From NCBI GenBank assembly GCA_008632985.1, contig QPGO01000099.1, positions 62,001 to 102,299 on the forward strand: a stretch of DNA of 40,299 nucleotides, written 5' to 3'. Numbering within the stretch: position 1 is the stretch's first letter; each line of letters starts with the position of its first letter. This document shows positions 1-36,650 of this stretch, one piece after another. This DNA comes from Psammoneis japonica. Lineage: Eukaryota. The position numbers and the translations under genes were made by a program. The notes under the pieces were generated by a model, which was not told where the DNA came from, did no database searches, and saw only the letters and a program-made list of their open reading frames with translations.

Positions 1-1310
1 CGCAGCTTCGCAAGGGATCGGCTTTTACGGATCGAGCCATGTATATTACCGTGAATCGAAACAAGTGGGGTGAAAATGTTGTATCCGTTGTCAATACGTT
101 GGGTATTCATGGTATTGAAGATGAAGACTTTCCGTTTAATTGTGGAAAAGCAATTCAGCATTTGGATGCCTACCAACAAGACGTGCGGGAGGGTTACGAA
201 CGAGCCATGGGGAAAAGTTCCGACAGTATTCACGGTCAAGCCAAGGCTAGTGATGTGGGTTATGCCAAGCGACTTTGTGACAAAAATAAAAGTGATCAAG
301 TGGCTCGATACAATGCCGATACTCGAGGATGTGATTGCAATCGATCCGAAGGAAAAGTGCTGATTCTAGCCACGGTTCACGATACCTTTCCTCGTCCCGT
401 CGAAAAGAAATCGTTTTGGATTTCTTTTTGTGATTTAGAAACAGCACTGGCGTTTCGAAGAGAAGTGTGTCTAGAAAATGAAAAGGATTTGCCGATTAGT
501 TTGGAGTACATGGATCGGGATTCATTTGATGTGATTGATCGTTCTGGCAGAATTGTTGCCAATTTAATAAAGTTGGTTGGCACCGAGAGCCCCGTGGTGA
601 GCAAATTGTGGGCTCTCAAGTTGTGGTTTGAAGGCTTGCCGATAAGTGGCGCTCCGTTGTTTTGTGATAAAGTCCTACACGGACTCAACCCATGGGTTCC
701 AGCCGTTTTGCCGTCTCGAATGATGGATGCAGGTCGACAAATGGACCATCACGTGGCCATGACGGTTGGCGAGTTTGGAGACGGCAACATGGAACGTGTG
801 TTAAATCGATTGCAAACCTTTGCATCTGCTCACGGTAAAGACAAGATTTCCGTTCATGAGTGTCGCTCTGCGGGAGAAGCAGCCAGTTTGACAGCCTTTC
901 GATTTGTGGCTGCGCCAGCGTTTCGAACATGGTGTGTTGGCGAAGGAGTGCAGGGGTTCAGTGTGGACTATGCACTCCCAAAGAATAATGGAACTGCTCC
1001 AACATTGAATTCATCACTTTCTGCAAAGCCATTAAAGCGTATGCGATACTCGCACTTTGGATGCAATGTTGTTCACGAGGACTTGGCGTACGGACCCGAG
1101 GTTGATGTACAAGAGGCAAAAATGGCACTCAAGGAAACGGTCGAGGCTCAAAATCGAGGAAAGCTTCCCGCGGAACATGGGCATGGGACAGAATACCGTG
1201 CGCCTAAGGCCACACAGGAGCGTTGGAAACGCATGGACCCTCTGAATGTAATGAACCCGGGCATTGGCGGACTCTCTCGTGGATTTCAGTACAAGGACGA
1301 GCATGACTAG
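1..1310 (+). CDS. dld: FAD/quinone-dependent D-lactate dehydrogenase (bacterial Dld-like), 5' truncated by the window edge
   Basis: Frame is open from base 3 (QLRKGSAFTDRAM). C-terminal motifs GKLPAEHGHGTEY and DPLNVMNPGIGGLS resemble the E. coli Dld C-terminus (YPAEHNVGHLY...DPTNSMNPGIGKTS). HFGCNVVHED and LEYMDRDSFD are also Dld-like. Normal dinucleotide composition. Confidence 0.85.
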   Translation, partial: QLRKGSAFTDRAMYITVNRNKWGENVVSVVNTLGIHGIEDEDFPFNCGKAIQHLDAYQQDVREGYERAMGKSSDSIHGQAKASDVGYAKRLCDKNKSDQVARYNADTRGCDCNRSEGKVLILATVHDTFPRPVEKKSFWISFCDLETALAFRREVCLENEKDLPISLEYMDRDSFDVIDRSGRIVANLIKLVGTESPVVSKLWALKLWFEGLPISGAPLFCDKVLHGLNPWVPAVLPSRMMDAGRQMDHHVAMTVGEFGDGNMERVLNRLQTFASAHGKDKISVHECRSAGEAASLTAFRFVAAPAFRTWCVGEGVQGFSVDYALPKNNGTAPTLNSSLSAKPLKRMRYSHFGCNVVHEDLAYGPEVDVQEAKMALKETVEAQNRGKLPAEHGHGTEYRAPKATQERWKRMDPLNVMNPGIGGLSRGFQYKDEHD

Positions 1311-1574: not shown

Positions 1575-3830
1575 TCAAGAACCGAAACACCATGAGACCA
1601 AGATGATTCCCGATTGCAGAGACTGCTTTTTAGCAAAAACAACGCCCAAACCCAGCAGTCGATTCGTGCGGCTATTCTTCAGTCTTCCAGCCTTCCATGC
1701 TTTCTTTTGATAGCTCAACCAAAATCCAAGTCTCTTTCCATTTTCAATGTGGTGACAAGGCACTTTGCAACTTCCCTCGCACTCCGCAAATTGTTCTAGA
1801 GAAGAGAAAACATAGTCTCCCATTGCTCAGCCAAAATGTCCCACTCAACTCCAGCCTTCTCCAGTCGTTCTTGTCTAGAAGCATTAAGTTTTCCTTTCCT
1901 TTTGGCTGTCCGTTGCTTGATCAACCACCTTCCAAGGTTCTCCCCATCCTCTTTGTGACCGTGCAGCACCCTGCAATGGCCCTCACGCACCACAAATCGT
2001 TCAAGGCAAGAAAACACAGTCTCCCATTGCTCAGCAAAAACTTCCCACTTAACTCCAGCCTTCTCCAATCGTTCCTGTCTAGAAGCGTCCAGAGTCCCTT
2101 TCCTTTTGGCTGTCCGTTGCTTGTTCAACCACCTTCCAAGGTTCTCCCCATCCTCTTTGTGACCCTGCAGCACAATGCAATGGCCCTCATGCACCACAAA
2201 TCGTTCAAGGCAAGAAAACATGGTCTCCCATTGCTCAGCCCGAATGTCCCACTCCACTCCAGCCTCCTTAATTTTTTTCTTTGTCAATGTCAAGCTTGCC
2301 AAGCTTGCATTTTTGCCGTTGCTTCTGCGACCAACTTCCAAGGGCAAAGCCATCCTCGGTGCACATTTGTTGGGAACATCACAATTGTTTTCTCTCTCCA
2401 AGCAAACCAAGAGCAGGCTGCAAGCATGACTCCATTTGTCATCATTCACACTCCACTTGACTCCGCCTTCTTGAGTGCTTGTTGACAAGAAATGTCCAGC
2501 ACCCCATTCTTTTTAGCTCGCTGTTGTCTGCTTGGCCCCCAAATTCATCCCCTCCTCTTTGTGGCCACAAGGAACGTTGCAACTCCCTTCGCGGTCTCCA
2601 CACACCAAGAGCACATCGCACATGCGATCCCAGGAACTCTTGTCTTTGCATTCTCTGATTGCCCTGTGCATGATGTCATTTTTCTTTTCAAAGGACAATG
2701 AATCAGGAAGCATGAAGGAATCAAGGACACAAGGAGGGTGCTCATTTCTTCAAATGGCCTTCCAAGTCTGTTGCTCTCTTCAATCACAAACAAGACGTCC
2801 TGATGCAATTCAGGATCTAGACCAACCATGGCCTCAAAAGCAAAGGCAAACATTTTGCATCCATTGGTGTCCTTGGACAACAGTTCTTCATCAGAAGTGT
2901 TTCTGGCTCACACGCCCAATCATTTGTTGTGCCAGGACTGAACTCCGAACGGGATCAGCCACCATTGCAACCAACTCCCAATCTGCCTCGTCAACACCTG
3001 CAGCCAGTGCTTTCCAGTTGGCAATGATGGGTTTGGATGCAGACTTTCCTTTCAACAAACCTTTTCCCGTTTTGTGGCAGACATTTTTGGGCTGCCACTG
3101 ACAGGAAATGCAGCAATGTTGTCCTTCAAAAGGAGAGTCAAGAAGAGTCCGCAAACGCATGTGCCCGGGCATTTGCAGAGTGAAACGAGACTGCATGATT
3201 CACGTTGAGTTTGTGAAAAGCTGCTTGAATGGCAAAAGGCACCAGGGAATGATTTGAAAGATCATTTGAATGATGGGCATGTGGCCACAGATTTTGCCTC
3301 TGTCCAACACGCACAGCGCAATGGGAACCACAATGTTGCACTCTGCACTTTCCTGCAGTGTCTTCCTCTCAACACATGACCCAAACAATGGCTTGTCATC
3401 AAAGCTCCGAACAGCTGCAGCCTTGTGAGCCACAGTCTTGTCGTCCCTTTTCAGCGACAGAGTTTGTGCTCCAAACTTGTCAAGCTTGGATCCTGACATG
3501 GCAACTTGCTTCAGAGATTTGGTGCATCGACAAGGGGTGGCTGCAAGAAAAAGTTGACAGTCAATGGGAAGGATGCTGTTGTAGAGACCGCAACCAAACA
3601 AATTGCCAGCACCTTCCATCTTGTGTGCTTTGTCAAAGATGCCAAACCTGATGCTGCTGCCCAGCTTGTTTGAAGCCTTGCCAACCTTGGGCAATGAGTT
3701 GCACGTGCAGCTGACAAACTGCAACTCATCATCATTGGAAAAAAGAAATGCTGCAATCTTGTCAACAGATGTTGTGCATGCCTCAGATCGACTGGTTTGG
3801 CCAGCCGCAATCAATCTCGAGTGAGTCACA
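1575..3830 (-). pseudogene. Decayed SF2 helicase C-terminal part plus tandem helicase-associated (HA, PF03457-like) repeats, copy 1
   Basis: HA repeats of about 60 aa (WETMFSCLERFVVHEGHCIVLQGHKEDGENLGRWLNKQRTAKRKGTLDASRQERLEKAGVKW) at 1796-2488 and 1575-1823. Helicase motifs SCTCNSL, IFDKAH and LFLAATP at 3200-3829. Stops, frameshifts and TpA depletion. Confidence 0.8.
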
Positions 3831-4762
3831 TTTTGTCAAATGCTCCAGATGAATCCAAAACTCCCAGAACTTGATCCACAAGTGTGAGCTTTGGTGTTGC
3901 ATGAATCGCCACTTGCACTCCTTTGAATCACAATCTTGCAAGCATTTCAAGGCTGAGCAATGTTTCACCCCCATCCCCGGGGAAGCTGAGTGTTGGCTTG
4001 GTGGTGTTTCTCATCATCAGATGATCTCAGTGTGTCACCTGCACTTCCATTTGAATTGCTCCCTCTCCCCACAGAGGATTTGTTGTCATCTCCACAGCAG
4101 TGACTTGTGAGAGAATCAATGACATCATTGTGTTGATCATCACAACATTGACAGCAGCGGCTTTCTTGATTTTCTGTGCACGACACTTTGATTTCTGAAG
4201 ATCATGTTTTTGTTCTTTGATCAATCTCGCTGGTGATCATTCTGTGGTCTTGTTGCAGATGCTCAATCCCAGAACAGATCAGATCCTCACTTGAGTCAAA
4301 ACTCGAAACACCGCTTTGCTGAGAGTCCAGATTTGATGGCTCATGAACAAAATCGACAGCTGTGTTGTTCAGCACATCCAAACATGCTGATTTCAGGTGA
4401 GCTGGGCCTTGTGGCTTTGCATGGAAAACTTGCATTGGTTGAAATGACAAAGAGCCAGAACAACAGATGCAAATCAGCACATGAACCAGAAACGTCTTCA
4501 TTGCATTGAAACACACGCATCAACCATGGCCACGTTGTTGTCGGTGGTCAGAAAAAATCACGCGAACAACACAGTGATGCCATTGGCATGAAATTCTGGG
4601 TGGACGGTGGATGTGCCGGCCCTCATGTTGTGCTGGAAATGCACTTTTGGCAGTGAAAATTAATCGAAACGGTTTCTGATCTTAACAGCTTCTCTCACTT
4701 CATTTTGTCTGCTTTGCAAAACACACACACAAAAACAAACAAACAAAACAGGCAATCTGGCG

Positions 4763-5640
4763 ATGATGAGCAATCAGGCACTGCCATCTGCTGGCAACAG
4801 TTTGTCCAATGGCGACACTGCATCTGCAATGCCTGAAAGCAGCAGCGGTTCAGCAGCACCTCATGGTGTTCCCAACCGCAATGCAGCTGTTTGTGTCAAT
4901 GTCCTGTGGGGCAAACAAGGCAGAGACAACACGTTCAAATTGCAAACCAAGGTTGATCCACAGTCATTTGGTCCAACTCAGGGTCTGCAATTGTGAGAAG
5001 AAGACACTCAACAAATGAACTGACAAATGAACTGAAGGGCAGCTCTGGAAATGTGAGGAACAATGGTGCTTCAGAAACCCGGAATGGATCATCCCTGAAC
5101 GGCAACAATGCTCATCAAGCAAACGGGGGCGGTTTCACCATTCGCGTGAATGAAAATGGCATGCCTGCAGCAACAATGCAACCAAACAGAGCACGTCATC
5201 AAAATGGCATTGGAGGTTCGAACGCAGTTGGTGGTTTGGGTCCCAATGCTTGCACATCACCCATGGCTGGATGCAATGGTGCCGCACGGCCTGTGCTGCC
5301 ACCCTTGCTCCCTCAGCAAGCAGAGTTCAAGTCGATGATTGTTCTTCATTGAGCTTGAAATGTGCCATTTGTTGAGATGTCCTGCAAGATCCAGTGGGAT
5401 GTGGAAATGACTGTTCTGCAAGGTTTTGTCAAATGTGTTTGGAGCAGCACTCTGCTCGTGCTTGGGGCAGAAACGATGCACCCAAGTGTCCTTGTTGCCA
5501 AAGAGACACTCAATCAATCAAATCTGATGCTGAGTTCAGGAGCAACTCAAGGACATCATTGTGGAGCGTGCTTGTGGTTGTGATCAACAAGACATTGAGC
5601 TCTGTGATTGGAAGAGACACAAACACGATTGTCCGAATGT
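4763..5640 (+). pseudogene. Hypermutated RING-finger (E3 ligase-like) gene fragment
   Basis: From about 5355 reads LKCAIC*DVLQDPVGCGNDCSARFCQMCLEQ...KCPCC, a RING-type Cys spacing with an in-frame TGA. Preceded by low-complexity N/G-rich coding-like sequence. No TpA seen. Confidence 0.55.
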
Positions 5641-5649
5641 GAAGCTGCA

Positions 5650-6790
5650 TTGTGCCCACAAGGTCCACAAACAATTTGAACACCGGAAACAATTTGATCA
5701 GAGGCACCCCACTTTAGTGTGAGTGCTTGGGCTCCAAGCTCGCCCAGCTTGGATGTCAACACAGCAACTTGTTTTGGAGACTCAGTGCAACGACAAGGCA
5801 TGGCCATTGGGAACAGGCGGCAGTCAACTGGAAGCAACGAATTACAGAGTCCATGACCAAACAAATTTCCAGCCCCTTCCATCTCGTGCACTTCATCAAA
5901 AATGCCGAATCCCGCGCTGACTCCAAGCTTTCTAATGGCATCTCCTGCCTTGGGCAGTGAGTTGCAAGTGCAGGTGATGAAGGGCAGCTTGCCCTCATTG
6001 TGAGACAGAAATTCCACAATTTTGTCAATGGATGTCGTGCAAGCCTCAGCACGGCTCGTTTGGCTGGCCACAATCTGTTGGGAGTGAGGAATTTTGGCAA
6101 ACACACCAGATTTGTCTGTGGATTCCAATGCTCGATCCACCAGAATCAGCTTCATTGTCGCGCAAATGGCAGACTCGATTTTTGATCTAGATGGACCTGA
6201 TCCTTGTTTTGCCATCCTGGCAAGTGTTTCCAAACCAAGCAATGTTTTGCCCCACCCCGGTGGAAGTGCTGCATTGGCCCTGCGATGATGATCATGTGCG
6301 ACTGTGGAAGAAATCTTGTCTGAATGCCATCTTGAGTTGTTTCCATTCTCTCCTCCCAACGGTTTTTGGTCTCCACGATGACATTGCACGAGACATTCTG
6401 TTGTGTCATCATGACGGTTGCCTCGATGTTGACAGTTTGCTTGACTGTTTGATGATGCACCGGCACTTGGAGTTGTTCTTCTTGCAGTGGAGTGTTGCAG
6501 GTCTTGCTCACACTCACAATCTTGGGTTGGAAATGTCAGCTCATTTCGACAAAACTGTCAACATGCTTTTGGAAGAAACTCTCTTGGAGGCGGTTCAACT
6601 ACAAGCTCAACAAGACTGTCATTAAATGCTTTGACGGATGCCACTGAGAGTTGAAAAGCACTTTGTGATCTTTTTGGCAGTCCAAATCGCAGTGGCTGAA
6701 AAGATTCAGGCAGTTCAACTTGGAGCAAGAGGAGACATGGAAAGAGCTGTGAAGACTTCATTGTTCTTGGCATCTGCAGAGCAGCAAACT
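5650..6790 (-). pseudogene. Decayed SF2 helicase N-terminal part (motifs I-III), copy 1
   Basis: ORF 5556-6389 contains LPPGWGKT (Walker A), ITCTCNSL (Ib), IFDEVH (II) and RLFPMAMP (decayed TATP, III). Colinear with 23397-24660 on the opposite strand. Confidence 0.75.
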
Positions 6791-7084
6791 GTGCAATGTG
6801 CGATGGCCGTCACAAACCAGATGGTGAGTTTGCATGCTTGCGCGCAACTTCTGATCATCTGCACTGCTCTGTGCTCACCGGGCAGAACACACCAGAGGAG
6901 AGGTGACAAATGAGAGAGAGAGACAGAGAGAAACAGACTTCTCTTCTGCTGCTCAAGCACACCACACCACAGTCATGCTTGTCAGAAGATTGTGCCAGCT
7001 TCACAAAAATGTGTTTGGGGCAGAGGTCGACAAAACATGATTTTCCACCCAGTCCCGCCAGCCTCATGTTCATTCTTGCCAACT

Positions 7085-7690
7085 GAATGATGGCAAAGTT
7101 CAGAGATGGTGGCTCGGAGCATGTGTTGAGTTGTTGGCTTTGCAAGCCTTTGCCTCCAAAGAACACACAAGCTTTCCACTCACATGAGCGCCCCATTGTT
7201 GATTGCTGTGCAAGAAAAGCTGCCAACTTGGCTGCCTCTCAAATTGTGGCTGCACCACAGCCTTTCAAACGCAGTGTGTTGGTGGAGGAGTGTGTGTGTG
7301 TGTGTGTGTGTGTGTGGGTCCAGCTTGGGCTGTGCACTCACAAAGTGCACCAGAACAACTTCTCAAACCTTGAGTTGTTTGCTGCCTTCTGAAAAGCCAC
7401 CCAGGTGTGCCCAACACTCAAACTTTGGGTGCCATGTTGGCTCATGAAAACTTGGCACACAGATGACCCAAGGTTGATGCCCAAGAGGCAAAACTGGCAC
7501 TCAACACCAAAATGGCAGAGGCTCAATGCAAAGGGAAGCTTCCCATGGAAAATGGGCATGATGGGAAAGACTGAGGAGCATTGGAAATGCGTGGACCCCC
7601 CCATGAAAGCAATGGTCCCGGCATTGGCAGACTCTCACAACGGTTTCAGCACCACAATGGCGAGCATGACCATTTTGGTCAGTGCAGTCC
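7085..7690 (+). pseudogene. Hypermutated duplicate of the 3' half of the D-lactate dehydrogenase gene
   Basis: Aligns by eye to about 760-1310. Examples: gacccaaggttgatgcccaagaggcaaaactggcactcaa vs gacccgaggttgatgtacaagaggcaaaaatggcactcaa, and ggcattggcagactctc vs ggcattggcggactctc. Indels and frameshifts. Confidence 0.85.
7290..7316. repeat. (GT)n microsatellite inside the dld pseudogene
   Basis: About 13 TG units, absent from the intact dld copy (gaaggagtgcagggg). Confidence 0.95.
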
Positions 7691-7866
7691 ATGGAGCAGA
7701 GCAATTGCCATGTGTTCCTCATGCTCCAACTCTTTAGCTGGTCGAGAGCGGCAAGGTTATCTTCAACGATGACTCTAGCTGGTAGACGATGCAGTCTCCT
7801 GTGTGTTGTTTTCTATGTATCACTGCGTAGCTGACAAGAGTAATAAGAGCAAGGACATCATCTACT

Positions 7867-10239: not shown

Positions 10240-10499
10240 CTCTATCGTACTAGAGAGCGATCATTCTGACCGCAACATCAAACAGCGCGTATCTCATGGT
10301 CTAAAAAAAAAAAATCGGTCTAATACGTAGGTAGAACTTGTGTAGAATTTGATAAGGACGCAATTCCATTTGATAAGGACAAGTAGAAAGCAACGGTCCA
10401 GTTTGGTAGAAATTTGAAAAGGACGCCTGACGGGGAATCCTCTTCATTTCCTTCATTCCACTCAAATGATCCCGATTTGGCACATCGTACCGTAAGAAA

Positions 10500-11960
10500 C
10501 GGCCATTCGCATTGCACTTTGATGTGTCTCGGCATGGCAAACATCGTGGGGCAGACGCATTTTGCATGTGTGATCTCTTTCTATCGCTGTCATGAAGAGG
10601 TTGACACATTGGCTTGGCTTCCTGGGGGGCTTTGGTTGTGACACACGGTGCAAACCGTTGCATGCATCGACTCGTGCCTCGATTGCTGCACACTGCGGGT
10701 TACATCTGAATGGTCGACAACATTGCCAAGGTGAGTTCTTCATGCATTTTCTCATTTTATTTCATTTCCCTGTTTGCTGAAGATTGTTGTTGTTTTTTGT
10801 TGCAGCTCACAAGGTGGGTTGATCGTCTCATGCGGTCGATTAAGATTCTGTAATGTTGGCATGTTGTTCAAGTCGCTGGTGCAGCCAAAGCACATCCGTT
10901 TGGGATCTTTGCACTTCGTCCCACTCTGCGTCCTTTGGCGCACCCAGTGTGCACATCAATGTGGATTTGTGATGTGCTTGGCATCCTTCTTGGGGGCTTG
11001 GTCGGCACATGATCACGGCATGCCGTGCATTCGGCCGTCACAATTTTTGGAAAGCGCGCGCCGTTGGAACAAAATGATGCGATGGAGCCTGGGGGACACT
11101 TGCAACATCAGCAATTGTCAGACAGTCTTGTCACAGTCCAAAAAAGGTGATCCTGTGAGTGTGCTCCAATTGTTTCATTGCTGGACTCGTTTTGACAAAA
11201 CTTGCACACCTCACGAGCCTTTTTTTGTGCGTCTCATTCATGCGTGCAGGCATCTGGTCTGTGATGAGCCTTTTTTCCTGTTCTGCAATCGATTCTCTTC
11301 ATTGTCTAAGACACAATGTCATCCACGTCATTTTGGGAGATCTTGGCAGTGCGCCAATGAGCCCAGGAGGCTTTGCACAGGGTAAAATGGGGAGGTCGAG
11401 GCTTGTGTTGGCGGGCTCATTGCCTGCTCTTGAATGTGCGGATGCCACGAACTGCTGATGGCACATTGGGGCACAAAAATTGGTGAGGCGACTCAGCTCT
11501 GCCTCCAAAAGGTGCCCTGGTGAGCACACTGTGTCATGTGATCCCATGTTGTTGTGTGCGTTGTTCCACTCATGTTTTTGTTTTGCCTGTCATTTTCCAG
11601 TGTGAATGTTGTTTGCTGTCACAGGTTGCAGTGGCATTTCCAGGCCCACATTCTAAATGAAAGATGTCTTTTGATGTTCCTCACTCACATGGGGAAATCA
11701 GATCCTGGAACTTTCTGCATCTGGTCGGGTCTCTAGAGAGGGAATGGATGGAACAATGTGGAGCCGGTTGCAGAAAAGTGATGAAAAAATGTTTGGCAAG
11801 TGCGCTGTTGTGTGTCGACTGTGGAGTCAGTCAGCTGTGGGTGTGTGCTTTTTCTGCATTTCTGTGAGCAACGAACCAGCAGATGATGCACCTGGACAGA
11901 TCATGCAGTGTTGTTGTTCTTCAGAGTGTTTGCTCCAGAGAGCAGAGAGCCACGACTGGC
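10500..11960. other. Hypermutated (TpA-free) sequence of unknown origin, probably a decayed transposon or gene
   Basis: Sharp compositional change between two divergent genes. Only Cys/His-rich short ORFs, with no motif I recognise. Confidence 0.45.
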
Positions 11961-12088
11961 TGGCCAGCTAGAGCAGATAGCTTCTCTCTTTCCCCTCCTC
12001 CTTTTCCTCTTCTTTTTTTCACAAACTTGGAGCCACCTGCGTGACCGGACACATGCCGAAATTCCTCAAATCCAAAATGAAACCAGCG

Positions 12089-12590
12089 GCGAGCCCGCTT
12101 GGAAGATGGTGTGTTTCTGCACAGTCTGCTGTGCAAGAAATGTCTTGGCCTGCTTGGAAGATGGTGCACACTCCACACAGTCCACATGAAATCCTGCAGC
12201 CCACTTGGAAGATGGTGTGTTTCTACACAGAGTGCTTGAAATCCCGCAGCCTGCTTGGAAGATGGTGTGTTTTCTCCAGAGGGGGGAGTCTGCATGGTGC
12301 AAAGATCCTGCACAAATTTTGCTTTTAGCCTGCTTGGAAGATGGCATGCTTTCCACACAGAGAGCTTGAAATCCCGCAGCCTGCTTGGAAGATGGCACAT
12401 TTTCCACAGGGAATCTGTGAGGTCCACAGATCCTGTGCAAATTTCACTTGGTTGGAAGGAGTCCCGCAGCCTGCTGGAAGATGGTGCATTTCTACACAGA
12501 GTGCTTGAGATCCCGCAGCCCACTTGTTTGTATTTTCTATGGGGAATCTGCATGGCACAAAGATCCTGTACAAATTTTACTTGGAAGGAA
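12089..12590. repeat. Degenerate tandem array of about 50-bp units (core gcctgcttggaagatgg, 7 copies) interspersed with three copies of a second unit (gatcctgtacaaattttact type)
   Basis: Unit A consensus atcccgcagcctgcttggaagatggtgtgtttctacacagagtgcttgaa. Unit B copies at about 12304, 12429 and 12562. Confidence 0.9.
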
Positions 12591-12889
12591 CCTTGGGCGG
12601 GGGTCTGCCCTCGCAAAAACTTTTGAAAATTTGCGAGTTCGTGCGTCGACCGATAGTTGGGGCATATTATTTTTTGCATTTAAACAGTATGACGTATACA
12701 GTATTAAATTGAATATATACACCTCGATATGCTTAGTGATGAAGATCATAATAATATGCTTCTTATAATGAACATTTATCATCATTTATTCAGAAGGGGA
12801 TATCAATCAAATTTTTGAGCGTGAACAACAACAAACCGTTTTCTCGCCATTTTTTCACGCACCCGCGACTCGATGCTCGATCGAGCGTC

Positions 12890-14337
12890 ATGTTGATGTT
12901 CAAACGTTCAACCAACCAAAACAATCGCTCTCGACGGCAGCAAGTCACTGACAATACAGCGGCTGAGGCGACTTATCAAACGTCTTTAGAGTTTCATAGC
13001 CTTGTCTTTGGTTCAATCCACTTTTCAAAGCTCCTCTCGTGGATATTGAATAACGGTATTTTTCGTTACTTGCTGACAAGAATCATGAAGAGCGGAAGCT
13101 CCACATCAATTATTGGTCCGTGGTGGGCTACTCTGATTCAGTCAAAAACTAGCAAAACTGCAGATCGAGCTTTGGGAGCAGCCTTTACGTTGGGGCTGAG
13201 TATTGCAATCATCAAGTTTGTCAATCGCTCATTGAGGTCATCTGCCAGACAGCATGATTTGTCTGGAGAATACCGTTGCGTTTCGCAGAGTCTCGTTTCG
13301 TTGGTTCGAGATATTTTGCGCAGTCTGGTAACTTTGAAGGATCAACTGGAAGGAAATGGTAACGAATTGGTCAAACACAGAGGCGCGTGTCATTGTCGAT
13401 CAATCGAGTTTGAGGTGAGTGTGGCATTTCGTGAAGAAGAGTCATATGAGCAACATACTGTTTGCAAAAAACTAACTCATATTGTGCTACTCTATGGACC
13501 GTCACTGCATTTCGCTCTCAGTTCCTCGGTCAGCGATGCTTAAAAGCAATTGATGCCCCAGGAAAGATACGGTATCCAAGAGCACGAGTAGAGGCGTCAA
13601 GCTTTCGATTCACAAAGGGTGCCGAATGCTCCCACATGTATTATGTACCAATTGAAGAAGATGACGGTGGAATGGGTTACGCAAGCCATCAAGGATCCGT
13701 CGTTGCAGCTCATTCGTTCTGTATGCAATGCGGCGTCCACATTTTGCATGCTCCGAGATCTGATTCCAATATTTTGGAAGTCAATATTGACTGCGTAGAC
13801 GAACGAAACGGCATTTCCGCGGGGTATCCGCAAGGTGCACCCCCATTCCAAACAAACGAGAGACAGTCCAACTCAAGGAGCCTTTACGGCGGTGAGAACT
13901 TTGCTAACGGTCATTTATCCACCATTTCATTACCCCAGAAGGAAACGCCGTACTCACCGCCAAGAGACTATGTCACACCGAAAAAGTTGATTCAACCCGT
14001 GGAGCCAACCACCGACTCGGCTGTCATTTCACCCGGGACACCATCAACCACAAATACAAGTCAGGAAACAGACAGCTTTGTAGCAGCCATGCGTATAAGA
14101 GCCAGCGCGCTTGAACAATTTTCTACGGGTACTTCGACGATTGAGGATGAATCCATATCGGGGGAATCGTCGTCCGTGGGGGCTCTGAGTATAGGAGCAC
14201 AATCTATGAACTTGCCGCCCCTTTCTTCAAAGCTGCCAGTTACTCACGAGTCACCAACAAAGTCGTCTGCAACACCAATGATGAGAGACCAGCTAAAATA
14301 CTACATGAAGAAGCACTTAAAGTCGGCGACAATGTAA
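12890..14337 (+). CDS. GFA/CENP-V (Mss4-like zinc-binding) domain protein with N-terminal hydrophobic segment and S/T/P-rich tail. Exons 12890-13414 and 13522-14337
   Basis: HRGACHCRSIEFE, HSFCMQCGVHILH and LEVNIDCVD motifs. A phase-0 intron (gtgagt...ctctcag) joins the two ORFs in frame. Confidence 0.75.
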
Positions 14338-14492: not shown

Positions 14493-14890
14493 GTGCATCG
14501 TTGTCGTCTGTATCATTACACTACACTGTAGAGTACCGGTACGAGTATGTTCGGATCGTGGAATACGCCACGCCTTCTTTTCCGCAAACGTTGTACTCTC
14601 GTGCCTCTCCATCCATTCGGAGTGTCTGTATTCACAAAAAACCTCCCAGTTCCGCCATTTTCGAAATGTCATAGCTTGAAAGTGCCTCAACAATCTCCTC
14701 CTCCAAGACGTTGTGCATAATGAGTTGAGCACAAGCATTCTTGGGCTGTTGTGCAAGTGCAATTGGCTGCATAAGTTTTTTTCTAAAAAGGCGGGCAAGC
14801 AAAAAATATGCACTCCACGTTGAGGTGCCGGGGACACATTTGTCTCAAGATGAGACATGCTCCGTTCAAGCTTGGAATCAATATCTATAA
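14493..14890 (-). pseudogene. Fragmentary duplicate of the 3' end and downstream flank of the CRAL-TRIO gene
   Basis: Aligns to about 16589-16985 (gcatcgttgtcgtctgtatc...ggaatacgccacgccttctttt...; IDSKLERSMSHLETNVSPAPQRGVHIFC vs INFKLERSVAHLTANVFPVPQRGVHVFC). Confidence 0.85.
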
Positions 14891-15158
14891 CGCCTACGCG
14901 CCTTCTAGCTAGTGGGGCGTTGGGCAATCACCATCATTCAACCGTGGCACGCATTGAAGTATCTGATGGCATGAATCGCCCAATGATCAGTCCAGAATGA
15001 CACAAGAGACGCCATCGTACCGTATGAGGGCGGGGTGTGCTTGCGGTTCGGGGTTCGCATTCGCAAAGTTCCGCTTTTCAGCTGGGAATTTTTAAAATGT
15101 CGGTTGCCCCAGATATCTTCGTCGGGTTCGCATAAAGTTACCTTCTACCAACACCACC

Positions 15159-15770
15159 ATGGTAGCCTCCACAGACAACACCATCCCGGAACCTCTCTAC
15201 GATCCTGTCACCGGCGACTTGATGATTGACCCTGTCGTCAACCCTGCCGGCGATTCGTACGAGAGGAGCACTCTTGAGGGTTCGGATGTGACGTATTACC
15301 CCAACCGAGCTCTACAATCCATCATTCAGCGAACAATCGAACTCGAATCGGACTCACTGCATGGAGCGTTGCGACGAGTCAATGAATCCCTCCAAACAGA
15401 ACTTGCACGTTTCCTCGAGGCCACTCTCGGCATCGAGCGTCATCCTCTTCACGAAGCATTTTACTGTCCAATCACACATGAACTGATCTGTGATCCAGTC
15501 ATTACACCAGATGGGGTGAGCTACGAGTATGAAGCAATTGCTCAGTGGATTCAAAGCAGAGGCCAATCACCGGTATCGCGAACTCCATTGTCGTTGAATG
15601 ACTTGCGCGACAACAACGCGTTGTACGAACTCATTCAACTTGAAAAACACCGCAGCGTTGACTCGATTCATCCCTCGATTCGACGCTGGAAGGCTTCTGG
15701 CAGTACTTCACGAAGAGCTCGGAATTCCCATCATGTAGAAACTGGTTCCGTGTCTTCATCAAACGCGTAG
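15159..15770 (+). CDS. Tandem U-box domain protein (E3 ubiquitin ligase-like)
   Basis: Two U-box motifs: LYDPVTGDLMIDPVVNPAGDSYER...YPNRALQSII and FYCPITHELICDPVITPDGVSYEYEAIAQWI...SPVSRTPL...NNALYELI. Confidence 0.85.
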   Translation: MVASTDNTIPEPLYDPVTGDLMIDPVVNPAGDSYERSTLEGSDVTYYPNRALQSIIQRTIELESDSLHGALRRVNESLQTELARFLEATLGIERHPLHEAFYCPITHELICDPVITPDGVSYEYEAIAQWIQSRGQSPVSRTPLSLNDLRDNNALYELIQLEKHRSVDSIHPSIRRWKASGSTSRRARNSHHVETGSVSSSNA

Positions 15771-15929
15771 ACCTTGATGTTCGTGTGCTGTAGTGGTCGC
15801 TGGAAGTAGGCAGCTGCAGCCGGGCGATCGAAGGCAAAAACCAGAAAATATTCCCTTAATGCACAATTAGGAAACAGATGTCAACATAGCGCAAGGCGTC
15901 TTCTAGAGCTAGCCTTCAACAATGACGGA

Positions 15930-16320: not shown

Positions 16321-16683
16321 ACTTTGTCCATACAAGAACGAGCAGCGCCTGTGTCGTTGTAAAATGCAAAATTTTGGAAAAGAAAGCCGTGCCCATTAAT
16401 TGCCATGGCTCCAGTACCAATTTCGAGCTTGTTGTTCTAAGTGCTGGACTTGAGAGCTGTCTCTTGCTTTCATTTACTTTCGACATACGGTATAGCTGCA
16501 AGTGATATCTTGCGAAGGACACTGTTTCGTCTAGTGGGGAATTTTGGCCCACTTTAAAATAAGGACGACTTCCCGGAAGCACATGCCGGCATCGTTGTCG
16601 TCTGTATCTTTACACTACACTCGAGCATACCAATACGTTCGGAGCATGGAATACGCCACGCCTTCTTTTCCAAACCTTCTACT

Positions 16684-18591
16684 CTAGTGCCTCTCCATCC
16701 ATTCAGAGTGTATGTATTCACACGTACCTCCCAGCTCAACTGGAATCGCCTTTTTCGAAATGCCATAACTCGAAAGCGCCTCAACAATGTCTTCCTCCCC
16801 GACGTCGTGTATAACAATTCGAGCACGAGCATTCCTGGGCTGTTGTGCCAGCGCAATCGGCTGTATAAACTTAGCCAAAAAGAAGGGCACGCAAAACACA
16901 TGCACTCCTCGTTGAGGTACCGGGAACACATTTGCCGTAAGATGAGCCACGCTCCGTTCAAGTTTGAAATTGATATCCCACGCTGACGCGCCTTTTATAT
17001 TGAGCATCAAAATAAATCCCTTGTCAGCGTTAGGGTGTTGGGCCATCACTTCATGCAGAAGCCAATACACTTGAATCAAATTCCTAGTATCGTATCCATT
17101 GTAATCATTCAGTCGAAGCATGCAATGAAGTATTTGACGGCCTGAATCGTCCAATGAAGGTAGCAGTCGAATTAACCCCACTCGAACAGCCGCCTTTGCA
17201 TCTCCCATAGCTTCATCGATGGTAAGAGGCAAACAGAACTTGTCTCGTCCAAACAACTGCAGTCGTTCTTCCCAATATGAAACATATCGACGTGCCGCCG
17301 TCTCAGGATCCATGTCTACTCGTTTCAGAAATAGCTCCAGTCGGTCGTCATTTATCTCAACATCTCGAGCCTTTTGCTTTGCCTCTAACCAAGCTTTCTT
17401 TTCACGTGGCAGGATGAGTTCCATGTGACGCTTCATTTCCGATAACAAGGATGGAGTGTGATGGTTAACCTTGATTCGTTTTACACGCTTTGTAGGTGGC
17501 GTTGTCGATACTCGTAGCTTTCCAAATAGATCCGCGGTTGCAGCCCGTCGCTCATCTTCTGTGAGATCAAGGTCTTCCGGATGTTTTTGAATTGATGACG
17601 ATTCTGTCAAGGTTGAGAATAAGAATTCAGCAGCCGCAATGTCTTGACTCGTTAATGATTCTGATGGTTCTTCGGGAGACGTGGTTTGCTGTTCGTAGGC
17701 GTCTTTCCGGTGCTGAGTAACCGGCAATTCTTCAGGAGAAGTGGAACGTGGTTGATCAGCGCCTTCGTGGCTCTGCGGTGGGCTATGAAGACTAGGGGAG
17801 TTTCGTGCCTCGTTTCGAGCAGGAATGGGCCTTCCAGAAAAGCTTCTGGTCTCGTTAGTATTAAGTTGGTCTCGCAATGACTTTAATGGGGAGATATCTG
17901 CATCACTGCTGTCTCGTTTCTGTGCCTGGTTGCGGGTACCATTTCGCTCTTCTTGTTTCTTGTCTGGTGTCAAAGCTTCTGTGCCTATAGGTGGTGCGAC
18001 ATGCTGAGCATCCCGAGGTAGCGACGGCTTCTGACCCTCTACGAGATGGACAATGCCATTCCTTTGATCAGAGGCGCATTGGGACCAGGTCATCCGACTT
18101 TGTATCGTGGGTACTGGCTGTGAATATTGTATTGGCAATAGGCGTAAAGGTGACATCGGAACTGCAGCAGGCGGAAGAAATGGATTGCGAGCCAAGAATC
18201 CAAGTTGATGGAGCATACTTTGGCTGCCATGGGCTGTATGCATAGGCGAAACATTGCTGCCTGACCCACTGTGCTCGTTCTCACCAATCTCACACTCCAG
18301 TTTTTGTCGCAAAGCGTGCTTGATCTTGGTGAGGGCACGCTCAGTCGTTATTTCCCTCCATTGGCATACATCAGTGACTTCCATAAAGCGCCCCCGTCTT
18401 GCATGGACGTCATTCAGTATCTGCTGTGCCAAGGCCATCTTGTCAACTCGTTTCCGTAGCGACTGGTATGTGCTTTTGTATCTTCGTACAAGCTGTGAGA
18501 AGTGACGATTGCCGCTATGCTCTCGTGGACCCCTTCCTCGTCCTAACAATACGTCATTTTCAGTGGGATGTAAAGAGGAAGCTTGTTGCAT
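16684..18591 (-). CDS. DUF6824-like N-terminal domain, low-complexity linker and C-terminal CRAL-TRIO/SEC14-like domain (635 aa, intronless)
   Basis: NDVLLGRG...HSGNRHF...KIKHALRQ is the diatom-expanded DUF6824 pattern. FLKRVDMDPETAARRYVSYWEERLQLFG, DDSGRQIL and YGISKKAIPVELGG fit CRAL-TRIO. Confidence 0.85.
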   Translation of the reverse strand: MQQASSLHPTENDVLLGRGRGPREHSGNRHFSQLVRRYKSTYQSLRKRVDKMALAQQILNDVHARRGRFMEVTDVCQWREITTERALTKIKHALRQKLECEIGENEHSGSGSNVSPMHTAHGSQSMLHQLGFLARNPFLPPAAVPMSPLRLLPIQYSQPVPTIQSRMTWSQCASDQRNGIVHLVEGQKPSLPRDAQHVAPPIGTEALTPDKKQEERNGTRNQAQKRDSSDADISPLKSLRDQLNTNETRSFSGRPIPARNEARNSPSLHSPPQSHEGADQPRSTSPEELPVTQHRKDAYEQQTTSPEEPSESLTSQDIAAAEFLFSTLTESSSIQKHPEDLDLTEDERRAATADLFGKLRVSTTPPTKRVKRIKVNHHTPSLLSEMKRHMELILPREKKAWLEAKQKARDVEINDDRLELFLKRVDMDPETAARRYVSYWEERLQLFGRDKFCLPLTIDEAMGDAKAAVRVGLIRLLPSLDDSGRQILHCMLRLNDYNGYDTRNLIQVYWLLHEVMAQHPNADKGFILMLNIKGASAWDINFKLERSVAHLTANVFPVPQRGVHVFCVPFFLAKFIQPIALAQQPRNARARIVIHDVGEEDIVEALSSYGISKKAIPVELGGTCEYIHSEWMERH

Positions 18592-20118: not shown

Positions 20119-20705
20119 ACGGTAGCCACCACAGACAATACCCTCCCGGAACTTCTCTACGATCCTATCACCGGCGACTTGACAGTTGACCCGGTCGTCA
20201 ACCCTGCCGGAGATTCGTACGAAAAGAGCACTCTTGAGGGTTTGGATGTGACGTATTACCCCAACCGAGCTCTACAATCCATCATTCAGCGAACAATGGA
20301 ACTCGAATCGGACTCACTGCATGGAGCTTTGTGACGAGTCAATGAATCGCTCCAAACAGAACTTGCACGTTTCCTCGAGGCCACTCTCGGCATCGAGCGT
20401 CATCTTCACGAAGCATTTTACTGTCCAATCACACATGATCTGTGATCCAGTCATTACACCAGAGGGAGTGAGCTATGAGTTTGAAGCAATTGCTCAGTGG
20501 ATTTGAAGCCAGAGGCCAATCACCGGTATCGCGAACTCTATTGTCGTTGAGTGACTTGCGCGACAGCAACACCTTGTACGATTTCATTCAACTTGAAAAA
20601 CACCGCAGCGATGACTCGTTTCATCCTTCCATAAGACGCTGGAAGGCTTCTGGCAATACTTCACGAAGAGCTCGGAATTCTAATCGGTCTTCATCAGACG
20701 CGTAG
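20119..20705 (+). pseudogene. Pseudogene duplicate of the U-box gene
   Basis: Near-identical to 15159-15770, but ATG>ACG, CGA>TGA at 20332, small deletions and a second TGA near 20504. Similarity continues into the 3' flank to about 20820. Confidence 0.92.
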
Positions 20706-20849
20706 ACCTTGATGTTCGTGTGCTGTTCCGCGGATCGAAGGCCAGAAGCCAGAAAATATTTCGTAAATGCACAAATAGGAAAAAGACATCAAAAGAGCGA
20801 GAGACATTTTCTAGAAAGCGCAGCAACAATACTAACAACGGGGTGTAGA

Positions 20850-21098
20850 GCCATTACTTCACGTATAGCCAATACACTTGAATCAAATTCCTATTATCGT
20901 ATCCATTGTAATGCACAATCGCGGCACACGATGAAGTATCTGACGGCCTTAATCGTCCAATAAAAGGAGCAGTCGAAAGGTGCCCACTAGAAGAGCCGCC
21001 TTTGCATCTCCCATTGCTCCATCGATGGTAAGAGGTAAACAGAACAGTCGTTCGTCCCAATACAACATATCGGCGTGCCGCCGTCTCAGGATCCATGT
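20850..21098 (-). pseudogene. Internal fragment duplicate of the CRAL-TRIO gene
   Basis: MDPETAARRYV and YNGYDNRNLIQVYWL match about 17040-17315, with deletions. Confidence 0.85.
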
Positions 21099-22942: not shown

Positions 22943-23396
22943 TCCTTTGCAGTTCTGGGGTATATTAAGAGGAATAGGAACTAGCTAATGTTGATAACAC
23001 TGGCAGAGACGCCGCAACAATGTTTGATAATGATAAGGTACGGTATTCGTATGCGTCATGGCCTGCGACCTGCGACCCGCAGAAAAAAATGTGGGGAGCG
23101 CGCGCGGCGCGCGTTCGTCTCGACCAGATGCTGACGACGTTCAGACGACTAAGGCGCGGATCTTGGCTTACGCTTGCTTGCTTGCGCTTGATTTACAGCA
23201 TTGCTTGCTTTCGAGCGGTCAAAAGTGTTGACGGATGACGGCCATGCATGCGACGTACGGCCCAAAATAAAACCCAAAACACCAAATGGGGGTGTGCGGT
23301 GTGCGTGTCATTGGCGAGTTCTGACATCTGTGGCTGGCTTGGACTTCAAATGGTGGTTCCACCGGTTTCTCTTGCCTTGTCCTGTTGCCACACTCG

Positions 23397-26211: not shown

Positions 26212-26225
26212 TTACGGACCAGTGG

Positions 26226-26379
26226 TGTCGGGACAATCTAACAGATGTCTGGGACAGATGACAATCGTGCACCAGATGAGAAAGAAAGTGAGCAGAGAGA
26301 GATCATCGGATCTCTCAATGCTGTCCATGCCAGTCTGTCTGAGACAAGGGAGTGCACTCCCCGTCTCAGATGTCTGTCA
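26226..26379 (-). repeat. 3' LTR (154 bp)
   Basis: Direct repeat of 33382-33535. Begins TG on the minus strand. Confidence 0.92.
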
Positions 26380-26388
26380 CCCTCCCCT
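26380..26388 (-). promoter_or_regulatory. Polypurine tract (AGGGGAGGG)
   Basis: Immediately precedes the 3' LTR on the minus strand. Confidence 0.85.
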
Positions 26389-26491
26389 GATGAGCAATGC
26401 AAAAGCTCATCAAGAAAGAAAGGAGACAATCCAAGAAAAAAAATGAGGACCAGAATGGCAAGCCAAAGAGACACACAAAACAGAACAACAA

Positions 26492-33179: not shown

Positions 33180-33371
33180 GGTTGCATGGGAAAAAAATCA
33201 AAATCCCATGTAGAATGCTGGCATGTGTTCTGCGGTGGTCGTTTGATCACAAATCGAGAGGTGAAAAAACAGCTGTGACAATGGTGACGATTTCAACGAA
33301 GAAAAAGTCGCCAAATCACACAGCCGGCGCTGCGGCAGAGGAGCGTGGAGGAAGAGGAACAGTGCACTGCT

Positions 33372-33380
33372 GCTCACAAC
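33372..33380 (-). promoter_or_regulatory. Probable primer-binding site (GTTGTGAGC, possibly mutated GTTATGAGC)
   Basis: Directly follows the 5' LTR. Resembles the internal half-tRNAiMet PBS (GGTTATG(G/A)GC) used by copia/Ty5-type elements, with one TA>TG change (inference). Confidence 0.5.
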
Positions 33381-33381
33381 G

Positions 33382-33535
33382 CATCGGGACAATCCAACGG
33401 ATGCCCAGGACAGATGACAATTGCGCGCTAGATGAGAAAGAAAGTGAGCAGAGAGAGATCATCGGATCTCTCAATGCTGTCTGTGCCAGTCTGTCCGAGA
33501 CAAGGGAGTGCACTCCCCGTCTCGGATGTCTGTCA
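33382..33535 (-). repeat. 5' LTR (154 bp)
   Basis: Direct repeat of 26226-26379, with 15 transition differences counted by eye. Confidence 0.92.
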
Positions 33536-33665
33536 GGAGTTGTTTTTTGCCAACAAACAGAGTCTGCAATGCAAGGATCTTCTTGGTCTTGCTGGTGTTT
33601 CTGTTTCAAAGAATGAAAACTGTTCCATTGAAATCGATTGTGCATGGCTCCTCTTTAGAGTGCAT
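33536..33665 (+). pseudogene. 3' end and flank of helicase/HA copy 2, separated from the rest by the copia insertion
   Basis: ggagttgttttttgccaacaaacagagtctgcaat...gaatgaaaactgttccattgaaat aligns to the reverse complement of about 1530-1650. Confidence 0.8.
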
Positions 33666-33829
33666 GAGCACTGCTGCTGCAAACCATGAAAACAATTGCT
33701 TCAGAAATGTTTGTGTGTGCAGTTGCACTTCATTTGTGTTTTTGGCCAACCACTCCAGCCAGAGGGTGCCTTCATGATGGGTTGGCTCAAATGCTTCTGT
33801 TTTGTTGTGAGAGTTCTTGCACAGCATCG

Positions 33830-33833
<4 letters not shown>

Positions 33834-33870
<37 letters not shown>
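33834..33870. repeat. (TC)n microsatellite
   Basis: About 18 TC units. Confidence 0.95.
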
Positions 33871-33873
<3 letters not shown>

Positions 33874-33949
33874 CAGCTCAACATTGCTGCTCTGACTGGA
33901 GCGGAGCTCTGTCTGCTGCAGAGCAGCAGCAACAAACTTTTGCATGAAA

Positions 33950-36300: not shown

Positions 36301-36328
36301 TTCAATGTTCTACCGGCACGCATGGGGT

Positions 36329-36483
36329 GCGGCTGTCGCCGCTTTTCTCGTTTGTCCTCGGCGGCGATCTTCAAGCTAGTGTAAATCTAAAGGCCAGTGA
36401 TCCAAGGTGGGAGTGGAGTGGGCTTCACTGGCACACGAACTTTCCTTCTCCAAACAAAAAACCCAGGCTGGACGGCAAGGGCC
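36329..36483. repeat. Terminal direct repeat B2 (155 bp)
   Basis: Identical to 36651-36805 except TG (36408-9) vs CA (36730-1). Confidence 0.95.
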
Positions 36484-36650
36484 AGAGGGCGGGAGAGGTG
36501 GGAGCGTTTTAATCTGTCTGCGGGCCGGCTTGCTGTTGTTGTTTCCAAAAGAATGAGAGGAAACAAAGCAGCCGGTGAGAGAGGCGGCCAGGAAGTTTGG
36601 GAACTTTCAAATGGAATGGGGAATCTCGCCTTGCGGATTGCTCGAGGACA

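Follow-up and report, generated by a model that had tools for sequence, protein, structure and literature searches.

The stretch analyzed here comprises 40,299 nt of the Psammoneis japonica genome (assembly GCA_008632985.1, contig QPGO01000099.1, positions 62,001 to 102,299, forward strand) and is referred to below as the window, position 1 being its first letter. It contains four blocks that are nearly free of the dinucleotide TA, delimited by a sliding dinucleotide count. Between the blocks lie genes with long intron-free open reading frames (ORFs), which encode a D-lactate dehydrogenase, an AAA ATPase, a protein with DUF6824 and CRAL/TRIO domains, a U-box protein and a nucleotidyl transferase. 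At the fading right edge of the second block is a tandem array of alternating units, A and B, in which a given site reads TA in one unit and TG or CA in others. A first-pass annotation of the window had proposed, from three unit-B copies, that TA is the ancestral state and mutates to both TG and CA, along a gradient that fades toward the block edge. The origin of this pattern is the subject of the present work.

TA-poor blocks and the array at the edge of one of them

Within the blocks, 55 TA dinucleotides remain in 19,746 nt (2.8 per kb), compared to 621 in 14,552 nt outside (42.7 per kb). This is a depletion of ∼15-fold per kb, or ∼94% of TA, and the longest TA-free runs in the window reach 1443 nt. 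CG is depleted as well, at 25.2 per kb in the blocks versus 57.3 outside (∼2.3-fold, with ∼56% removed). TG and CA are both more frequent, at 103.7 versus 69.1 and 104.7 versus 75.4 per kb, respectively. AA is about level (77.7 versus 74.2), and the guanine plus cytosine (GC) content of the blocks is slightly raised (0.494 versus 0.472). Expressed as shifts per kb, TA falls by 39.9 and CG by 32.1, TG rises by 34.6 and CA by 29.3; a combined loss of 72.0 per kb for TA and CG thus stands beside a combined gain of 63.9 for TG and CA. The TA odds ratio is 0.04 in the blocks and 0.61 in the genes between them, and that of CG in the blocks is 0.41.

A repeat search of the window groups the three B units into one repeat family. 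Their variable strings, gatcctgCAcaaatttTGct at 12304, gatcctgTGcaaatttCAct at 12429 and gatcctgTAcaaatttTAct at 12562, match the sequence exactly as they had been annotated. When the units are aligned, 12 of the 42 columns vary, and 8 of these 12 fall in four pyrimidine–purine (YR) dinucleotide sites (Table 1). At the third and fourth of these sites, one unit has CA, another has TG, and B3, the copy closest to the block edge, has TA. B3 is itself half mutated, with CA at the other two sites.

The eight A units (A1–A8), delineated by repeat search and alignment, behave in the same fashion. Some of their YR sites vary among TG, CA and TA, and others among CG, TG and CA. At the gg-YR-YR position, A1, A3 and A4 have TG-TG, A2 and A7 have TG-CA, A5 has CA-TG and A6 has CA-CA. 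All four combinations of TG and CA described by the first-pass annotation are therefore present in A1–A7. The edge-most unit, A8 (12504–12540), has TG-TA. This TA bears out the second YR of the ancestor that had been proposed, ggTATA, while the first YR could have been either TA or CG. A third site reads tcTAcaca in A3, A7 and A8, tcCAcaca in A2, A5 and A6, and tcTGcaca in A1. Two further sites contain CG in some of the units: AGCC(CG)CTTGG has CG in A1, CA in A3 and A8, and TG in A2 and A4–A7, and ATCC(CG)CAG has CG in four A units and TG in A3. In unit A7, at position 12492, the corresponding contig from the sample that contains the stretch is 12 nt shorter than the window.

In the array, TA occurs at positions 12224, 12326, 12493, 12531, 12538, 12569 and 12578, and it is dense again from 12654. 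Four sites have TA in at least one unit; at these, TA is retained in 2 of 18 cases in the first nine units and in 4 of 4 in the last two (Fisher's exact test, P = 0.002; the comparison is post hoc, and the states were tabulated by hand from the unit alignments). With that qualification, the proposed fading toward the array edge is borne out. The effect weakens over the last 100–350 nt, and hence the outermost units keep TA. The array units have mutated independently of one another, after the array was formed.

Table 1. Features of the window, with positions counted from its first letter
Feature	Position	Strand	Observation
Intact D-lactate dehydrogenase gene, 3' part	3–1310	+	Lact-deh-memb, E 3.7e-60
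Block 1	2270–7735		∼2270 at left; 11 TA in 5466 nt
Hypermutated pseudo-copy of D-lactate dehydrogenase 3' end	7140–7671	+	Inside block 1; aligned to gene 810–1310
High-copy repeat, class not assigned	10338–12061		Summed contig depth 786–1237 versus ∼55; TA-poor core from ∼10520
Block 2	10520–12224		Fading edge to ∼12600
Single-copy TA-poor tandem array flanking the high-copy element	12062–12600		Contig depth 52.7; TA returns toward 12600
Eight A units (A1–A8), alternating with B units	12075–12540	+	Repeat search and alignment
Unit B, copy 1 (B1)	12283–12324	+	Sites CA, TG, CA, TG
Unit B, copy 2 (B2)	12408–12449	+	Sites TG, TC, TG, CA
Unit B, copy 3 (B3), closest to block edge	12541–12582	+	Sites CA, CA, TA, TA
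Block 3	23268–29617		14 TA in 6350 nt
Degraded Copia-type retrotransposon	26228–33535	−	Domain matches between a pair of direct repeats
Candidate long terminal repeat (LTR)	26228–26379		152-nt direct repeat, pair 91% identical
RVT_2 reverse transcriptase	27051–28784	−	E 1.8e-4
SH3-like integrase (SH3_retrovirus)	27940–29688	−	E 3.2e-9
Insert resembling a miniature inverted-repeat transposable element (MITE); unmutated island in Copia	29602–30001		∼400 nt; 24-nt terminal inverted repeats, 92% complementary
Gag-pre-integrase (gag_pre-integrs)	29970–30608	−	E 3.5e-6
Block 4	30011–36235		19 TA in 6225 nt
Candidate LTR	33384–33535		152-nt direct repeat, partner of 26228–26379

Direction of change in three outgroup comparisons

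The 3' end of the D-lactate dehydrogenase gene is present a second time, in block 1, and the intact gene (810–1310) serves as the unmutated reference for this diverged pseudo-copy. The alignment of gene and pseudo-copy covers 568 columns, with indels, at 64% identity. None of the 12 aligned TA dinucleotides of the gene persists in the pseudo-copy; six read CA, two TG, two CC, one AA and one TT. For the 25 aligned CG dinucleotides, 13 read CA, 7 read TG and a single CG is kept. The reverse changes are absent, with TG to TA at 0 of 40 and CA to TA at 0 of 37 positions, and the pseudo-copy keeps the gene's TG at 32 of those 40 positions and its CA at 20 of those 37. At the codon level, four Tyr codons of the gene are TGT or CAC in the pseudo-copy, and Arg codons (CGN) are TGC, CAA or CAT. 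All 60 homologs have Tyr at positions 323, 349 and 430 (as does E. coli Dld at the 349 position), and at position 363 Tyr occurs in 37 of them and Phe in 22. The residue of the pseudo-copy at these four sites is found in none of the 60. Similarly, Arg300, Arg346, Arg348 and Arg407 are Arg in every one of the 60. This conservation identifies the gene as the ancestral state and the block copy as the one that has undergone TA to TG/CA in addition to CG to TG/CA. Its indels indicate that the pseudo-copy is free of coding selection. The pseudo-copy sits at the right end of block 1, 5.8 kb downstream of the gene and in matching orientation; capture by an element and a flanking duplication are both candidates for the origin of the duplication.

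These data bear directly on the idea that CpG decay alone produced the array pattern, i.e. that the variable sites were once CG, that single deaminations gave TG or CA, and that TA arose by two hits. CpG decay is indeed active here, as seen in the conversion of 20 of 25 CG to TG or CA in the pseudo-copy, in the CG odds ratio of the blocks, and in the array sites that vary among CG, CA and TG. It runs in parallel with TA loss within both the blocks and the array, and on this point the first-pass annotation, which had set the TA change in place of CpG decay, was mistaken. As a complete account, CpG decay alone deserves almost no credence. It cannot remove TA, yet TA drops from 42.7 to 2.8 per kb, and conserved Tyr codons have become Cys or His codons. 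Moreover, changes of TG or CA to TA are rare, which makes it unlikely that the two TAs of B3 are derived and very unlikely that double hits produced TA twice in one 42-nt unit.

A second comparison used the reverse transcriptase (RT) of the Copia-type element. A full HMMER search with this RT gave 1291 relatives at E values up to 0.001, and 59 relatives covering >300 residues, from the 150 listed, were aligned. Half or more of the homologs have Tyr in 12 columns, and the RT of the window has it in none of these; its residue is Cys in five, His in four, Phe in two and Ser in one. When the threshold is raised to 80%, all four of the Tyr columns have His or Cys in the window. Tyr to Cys corresponds to A to G on the sense strand and Tyr to His to the same change on the antisense strand, which shows that both strands are affected. 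Among control residues, Trp is kept at 4 of 4 positions, Asp at 9 of 10 and Pro at 11 of 13. Arg is kept at 3 of 10. The overall composition is also unusual, with 0.3% Tyr, 7.0% Cys and 5.9% His, compared to 2.3–6.4% Tyr in the first 40 homologs. We also considered the motif HQVDD as a mutated form of YVDD and rejected this; the consensus of the family is RQVDDF, and the change is therefore Arg to His, consistent with CpG decay.

For the third comparison, metagenome contigs were scanned with an alignment of the RT and ten of its homologs. Of the 435 relatives confirmed in this way, we retained the 80 best loci, in which the TA odds ratio over the whole locus ranges from 0.23 to 0.83. Forty-six of the 80 RT segments form one DNA cluster (single linkage, 85% identity). 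As reference for this family we took the majority state, which has 51 TA, 46 CG, 83 TG and 80 CA. Most copies retain 37–47 of the 51 TA, and a minority show graded loss. The most depleted, L051, keeps 8 and has TG at 23 and CA at 15 of these positions. It is followed by L019 (= L022), with 11 TA, 24 TG and 15 CA; L060 (= L061), with 13 TA, 22 TG and 12 CA; L043, with 18 TA, 16 TG and 14 CA; and L046, with 22 TA, 13 TG and 12 CA. In the first three of these, consensus TG reads TA at only 0–4 of 83 positions and consensus CA reads TA at 0–1 of 80. Across the whole family, the corresponding figures are 0–5 of 83 and 0–7 of 80. Where two copies are mutated at one site, they have the same product in 53–77% of cases, meaning that copies often carry TG versus CA at a single ancestral TA. 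A consensus of genomic copies had been suggested by the first-pass annotation as the way to check its claim; applied to this related RT family, it returns TA as the majority state, with TG and CA in the mutated copies.

The five named copies share 45–49% protein identity with the Copia RT of the window. In L060 and L061, TA density is normal again in the 3' part of the locus, resembling a block edge. A degenerate version of the unit-B motif had no match in the metagenome contigs.

The host gene fragment, the conserved tyrosines and the 46-copy family thus agree on direction. They support TA as the ancestral state at the two unit-B sites, as originally proposed, and the change of TA to TG or CA is real and directional, reverse changes being rare in both the pseudo-copy pair and the environmental family. 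We also considered whether there might have been no mutation at all, the blocks being foreign DNA that is natively TA-poor, the outcome of selection against TA, or an artefact of sequencing or assembly. The blocks are compositionally distinct and sharply bounded, and the contigs that contain the stretch may come from the window's own source. However, a fragment of the organism's own gene has been converted; this fragment has indels and so is not under coding selection; TG and CA occur at one and the same site in different copies; and metagenome assemblies from elsewhere, of the short-read style, show the same graded conversion. An explanation without mutation is thus hardly credible.

Neighbor context, targeting and the elements concerned

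To describe the specificity of the process, we compared five low-TA environmental copies with ten little-mutated ones. In the low-TA copies, A to G changes were found at 169 of 500 A residues preceded by T, 49 of 591 preceded by A, 51 of 800 preceded by C, and 13 of 625 preceded by G. In the little-mutated copies, the corresponding counts were 48/1018, 32/1198, 62/1629 and 31/1269. The 5' neighbor therefore ranks T >> A > C > G. At the A of TA in the low-TA copies, transversions account for 11 of 500 positions and A to G for 169 of the 180 changes (∼94% transitions). C to T at CG occurs at 45 of 454 positions in the low-TA copies and 69 of 914 in the little-mutated copies.

The 3' neighbor matters as well. 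Counts of TA in blocks versus outside are 1 versus 224 for RTAY (R, purine; Y, pyrimidine), 20 versus 303 for mixed contexts, and 32 versus 94 for YTAR, and CG retention is flat over contexts (0.43–0.46). That the residual TAs are mostly YTAR, with a single RTAY, suggests that the A of TAY is the preferred target. The logarithms of TA retention are roughly additive per strand, which fits a rule whereby the A of TAY is struck ∼4 times faster than the A of TAR. In the environmental copies, TA is kept at 15 of 100 RTAY, 35 of 110 YTAY, 3 of 10 RTAR and 19 of 35 YTAR sites, and the products are those that the rule predicts, with 46 TG to 24 CA for YTAY and 6 CA to 1 TG for RTAR. We saw no significant strand-coordinated clustering of TG versus CA products, as 146 of 271 adjacent pairs were alike versus 135.6 expected (P = 0.11). 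By sequence, the 55 TAs left in the blocks are mostly TTAA, CTAA/TTAG and CTAG.

This specificity can be set against two mechanisms other than a dedicated enzyme. One is error-prone repair, in which deaminated 5-methylcytosine recruits patch repair by a polymerase-eta-like enzyme at WA motifs (W, A or T), as in antibody hypermutation. In line with this, TA loss and CpG loss share the blocks and are correlated in the environmental copies (rho 0.47), and AA is the second-best target (49/591, versus 32/1198 in little-mutated copies). However, of 180 changes observed at the A of TA, 169 are transitions, whereas polymerase eta gives many transversions. Furthermore, AA density is unchanged in the blocks, and C to T at CG is nearly equal in the most and least TA-depleted copies (45/454 versus 69/914). 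Nor is CpG mentioned in the main text of a preprint describing TpA-directed mutation in Bigelowiella natans (Mettrop et al., 2026; 10.64898/2026.01.13.699255). Error-prone repair thus seems an improbable source of the pattern.

The other mechanism is a labile base modification, for instance a methylated adenine or a modified thymine, placed on palindromic TpA where chromatin is silent; it would miscode or deaminate spontaneously with no mutator enzyme. In its favor, TpA reads the same on both strands, as do the targets of maintenance methylation, and the process is regional, strand-symmetric and devoid of strand-coordinated runs. On the other hand, we know of no TpA modification of this kind in diatoms. 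In addition, TpA mutation in B. natans was seen in only 11 of 15 lines, which its authors, as far as the main text goes, interpret as switchable activity (10.64898/2026.01.13.699255). We give this mechanism a small chance of being correct.

With respect to targeting, the array has a contig depth close to that of unique DNA (52.7 versus ∼55), and a single contig (depth 54.2) covers 12028–13500. Contigs of the adjacent high-copy repeat diverge at ∼10338 and ∼12061. As the single-copy array outside this repeat is TA-poor, the process extends ∼0.5 kb into unique DNA. Graded edges, over 200–1000 nt, are also seen at ∼1550–2500, 10407–10851 and 23050–23528. Outside the blocks, duplicated members of gene families retain TA at 16 of 20, 13 of 18 and 9 of 13 sites. 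Of the two D-lactate dehydrogenase copies, a single one is mutated. These data indicate that targeting is regional, and not triggered by duplication as in fungal repeat-induced point mutation (RIP). The duplicate pairs used as controls, which include the U-box gene, are 15161–15907 and 20121–20815, 14495–14907 and 16589–16997, and 17033–17315 and 20841–21098; they are 84–91% identical over aligned columns (79–85% by BLAST). Although TA-poor, the high-copy repeat reaches 14–22 times the depth of single-copy DNA when contigs that match at 90% or more are counted. Its copies may have been mutated separately, or a TA-free master copy may have spread.

The Copia-type element in blocks 3 and 4 has its domains in the correct order on the minus strand. 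The 152-nt repeats at its ends may, judging from sequence, be its LTRs; neither a primer-binding site nor a target duplication was identified for the element with this repeat pair. The two repeats differ at 13 positions, all of them transitions and nearly all at YR sites, which fits mutation after integration if they are indeed LTRs. The MITE-like insert within the element has normal TA and CG densities. It may have arrived after mutation had ceased there, or it may have been no target.

The LTR comparison is pertinent to a further alternative, namely that transposon RNA was edited by an ADAR-like enzyme and the changes were fixed by reverse transcription before integration. The blocks do contain retroelements, and the 5' order T >> A > C > G resembles that of ADARs. 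However, the two strands are about equally affected, with five Tyr to Cys and four Tyr to His in the RT and 23 TG to 15 CA in L051. A host gene fragment and the single-copy array outside the repeat are also mutated, the units within one array differ from each other, and the 13 transitions in 152 nt separate the two candidate LTRs of one element. The preferred 3' neighbors, too, are pyrimidines. Collectively, these observations make RNA editing a very unlikely explanation.

Several other features of the window deserve brief description. Block 1 consists of a relic with HA-domain repeats and a weak helicase match, which is homologous to 23396–26076 on the opposite strand; the copy in block 3 is reversed and shortened relative to that in block 1. 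A 204-nt tandem repeat (1805–2265) lies within 1796–2512, the minus strand of which encodes two HA (PF03457) domains at E 8.3e-35, despite its location at the TA-poor left edge of block 1. This region is homologous to 24379–26076 in block 3. The 204-nt repeat offers one further site with TA, CA and TG (CATAG, CACAG and CATGG), and the remainder is too diverged for use.

The D-lactate dehydrogenase has a best identity of 71% among the 120 homologs listed, and those of the 120 with organism names are all from diatoms (Thalassiosira, Ditylum, Cylindrotheca, Mayamaea and Bacillariaceae). For the DUF6824 ORF, the nearest Atlas clusters are mostly Bacillariophyta among their known members, while an Atlas search with the AAA ATPase gave no taxonomic indication. 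The matches, with which the long intron-free ORFs agree, point to a diatom and not to Bigelowiella as the source of the window, and no close named relative came up in these searches. The right end of the window (36200–40299) is unlike both blocks and genes in composition, with GC of 0.54–0.61, a TA odds ratio of 0.05–0.37 and CG near normal; it includes a run of N (38657–39484) and long ORFs without a Pfam match. A scan of the window against Rfam gave no family at the gathering score.

A probable regional TA-directed process and its relation to known systems

We interpret the three-copy pattern as the local footprint of a regional, directional TA to TG/CA process in a diatom genome, and put the probability of this reading at about 0.75. 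According to this model, the A of 5'-TpA-3' would be converted to G on either strand, in transposon-derived DNA and for a few hundred bases beyond, and the same ancestral TA would thereby become TG in some copies and CA in others. Ordinary CpG decay to TpG or CpA proceeds in the same regions. An enzyme may deaminate adenine in DNA to hypoxanthine, the chemistry proposed for B. natans, with targeting that follows the silenced, CpG-methylated state of repeats, and the effect would be to disable mobile DNA.

A number of observations weigh against this interpretation or parts of it. TA loss and CG loss are correlated over the 46 environmental copies (Spearman 0.47, P = 0.001). The two losses are therefore not fully independent, and age or shared targeting could explain the correlation; the most TA-depleted copies still hold 32–34 of 46 CG. 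The TG/CA share of double differences is alike in block pairs (44 of 141) and in one control pair (3 of 9), and such differences discriminate solely when counted per aligned base (27 versus 4 per kb). The preference for a 3' pyrimidine is the opposite of that of ADARs. TA density changes abruptly at 7735 and at each end of the MITE-like insert, such that a gradient fits only some of the edges. The MITE-like insert is untouched within a saturated block, which implies either that the process had stopped there or that targeting is not purely regional. The stretch was found in three runs of one sample and study, all of them assembled contigs, with no RNA data set listed; the depth and boundary data come from this sample, which is probably the window's own source. 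Finally, for this organism, we infer both the deaminase and the defence role.

A stronger version of the model can be offered only tentatively, and we regard it as more doubtful than the process itself. Diatoms, and perhaps the wider stramenopile–alveolate–rhizarian (SAR) group, may possess a dedicated defence mutator, a DNA adenine deaminase that acts on silenced repeat chromatin as a mirror image of RIP. Such an enzyme would convert the A of 5'-TAY on either strand of the duplex to G until TpA is gone, and would thereby deprive transposons of Tyr codons, of TATA-like signals and of two stop codons out of three. The 5' T >> A > C > G and 3' Y > R rule would then be its fingerprint, and leakage of a few hundred bases into host DNA could remodel promoters and gene fragments. 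Whatever the mechanism, it has to accommodate the neighbor rule, products that show no strand-coordinated runs, a separation from CpG decay that is only partial, the reach of the process into unique flanks and a young insert that was left untouched. There is also a practical consequence. TA-free relics have very few stop codons and hence long spurious ORFs, and they have drifted far from their families, so that gene and repeat annotation in diatom genomes will be misled.

RIP in ascomycete fungi changes C to T, mostly at CpA, which creates TpA and lowers GC, and it is triggered by sequence duplication. The process described here is similar in that transposon copies undergo transition hypermutation, adjacent unique DNA is affected by leakage, and mobile DNA is inactivated. 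In contrast to RIP, TpA is destroyed and GC is slightly higher (0.494 versus 0.472). Also unlike RIP, gene-family duplicates that are 84–91% identical are untouched, and one of two dehydrogenase copies is mutated.

In Phaeodactylum, transposon methylation depends on DNMT5a (PMC9998398). The CG to TG/CA changes in the blocks and array resemble the methylated-CpG decay of silenced transposons. Such decay cannot account for the loss of TA or the Tyr to Cys/His changes, and constitutes a second, parallel process. Animal deaminases also act on retroelements and viruses, ADARs by converting A to inosine on RNA and APOBECs by converting C to U on cDNA. They share with the present case deamination-type transitions, a nearest-neighbor preference and selfish elements as targets, and the 5' order T > A > C > G is ADAR-like. 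Here, however, both DNA strands and DNA other than retroelements are affected, the changes occur in place, and 3' pyrimidines are preferred.

The closest parallel is B. natans, a chlorarachniophyte (Rhizaria). So far, TpA-directed AT-to-GC hypermutation of foreign DNA has been reported once, in the preprint on this organism, and we found no report of such a signature in diatoms in the literature searched. A term search of the available text of a 2009 paper on diatom Copia elements gave no mention of hypermutation, dinucleotide, RIP or deamination. According to the main text of the preprint, 124 clusters in the B. natans genome are TpA-depleted and enriched in CpA and TpG, with reverse-transcriptase and DDE domains over-represented (10.64898/2026.01.13.699255). 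Its mutation-accumulation lines gave 231 mutations in two integrated viral regions, of which 230 were A to G or T to C, all at TpA; an adenine deaminase was proposed, with an ADAT2-like candidate (10.64898/2026.01.13.699255). CpG, diatoms and flanking context are not mentioned in the main text (term search), and the supplements may hold flanking bases.

At the level of sequence, the case described here shares the defining features of TpA hypermutation of the B. natans type: A:T to G:C transitions at TpA yielding TpG and CpA, restriction to discrete regions of foreign or mobile origin with the rest normal, and TpA depletion coupled to enrichment of CpA and TpG. The differences, as judged from the main text of the preprint, are also informative. 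The targets in B. natans are giant-virus or virophage inserts, whereas here they comprise relics of Copia and other repeats, part of a host gene and a unique flank. The TA odds ratio, 0.45 in a B. natans virus region, is near saturation here (0.04). CpG decay accompanies the process here and is absent from the discussion in that text, and the same is true of the preference for TAY over TAR and of the secondary AA context. The signature in the window is read from sequence; in B. natans, the mutation rate was measured in real time. New here are a second, distant host lineage, namely a diatom (Stramenopiles), the inclusion of transposons and host DNA among the substrates, near-complete conversion, the neighbor rule, the relation to CpG decay and the behavior at edges. 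If our interpretation is correct and this signature has reached saturation in a diatom, the process is no curiosity of one species, and ordinary transposons are targeted besides integrated viruses. It could then be studied in a group with genetic tools, methylation mutants and many genomes.

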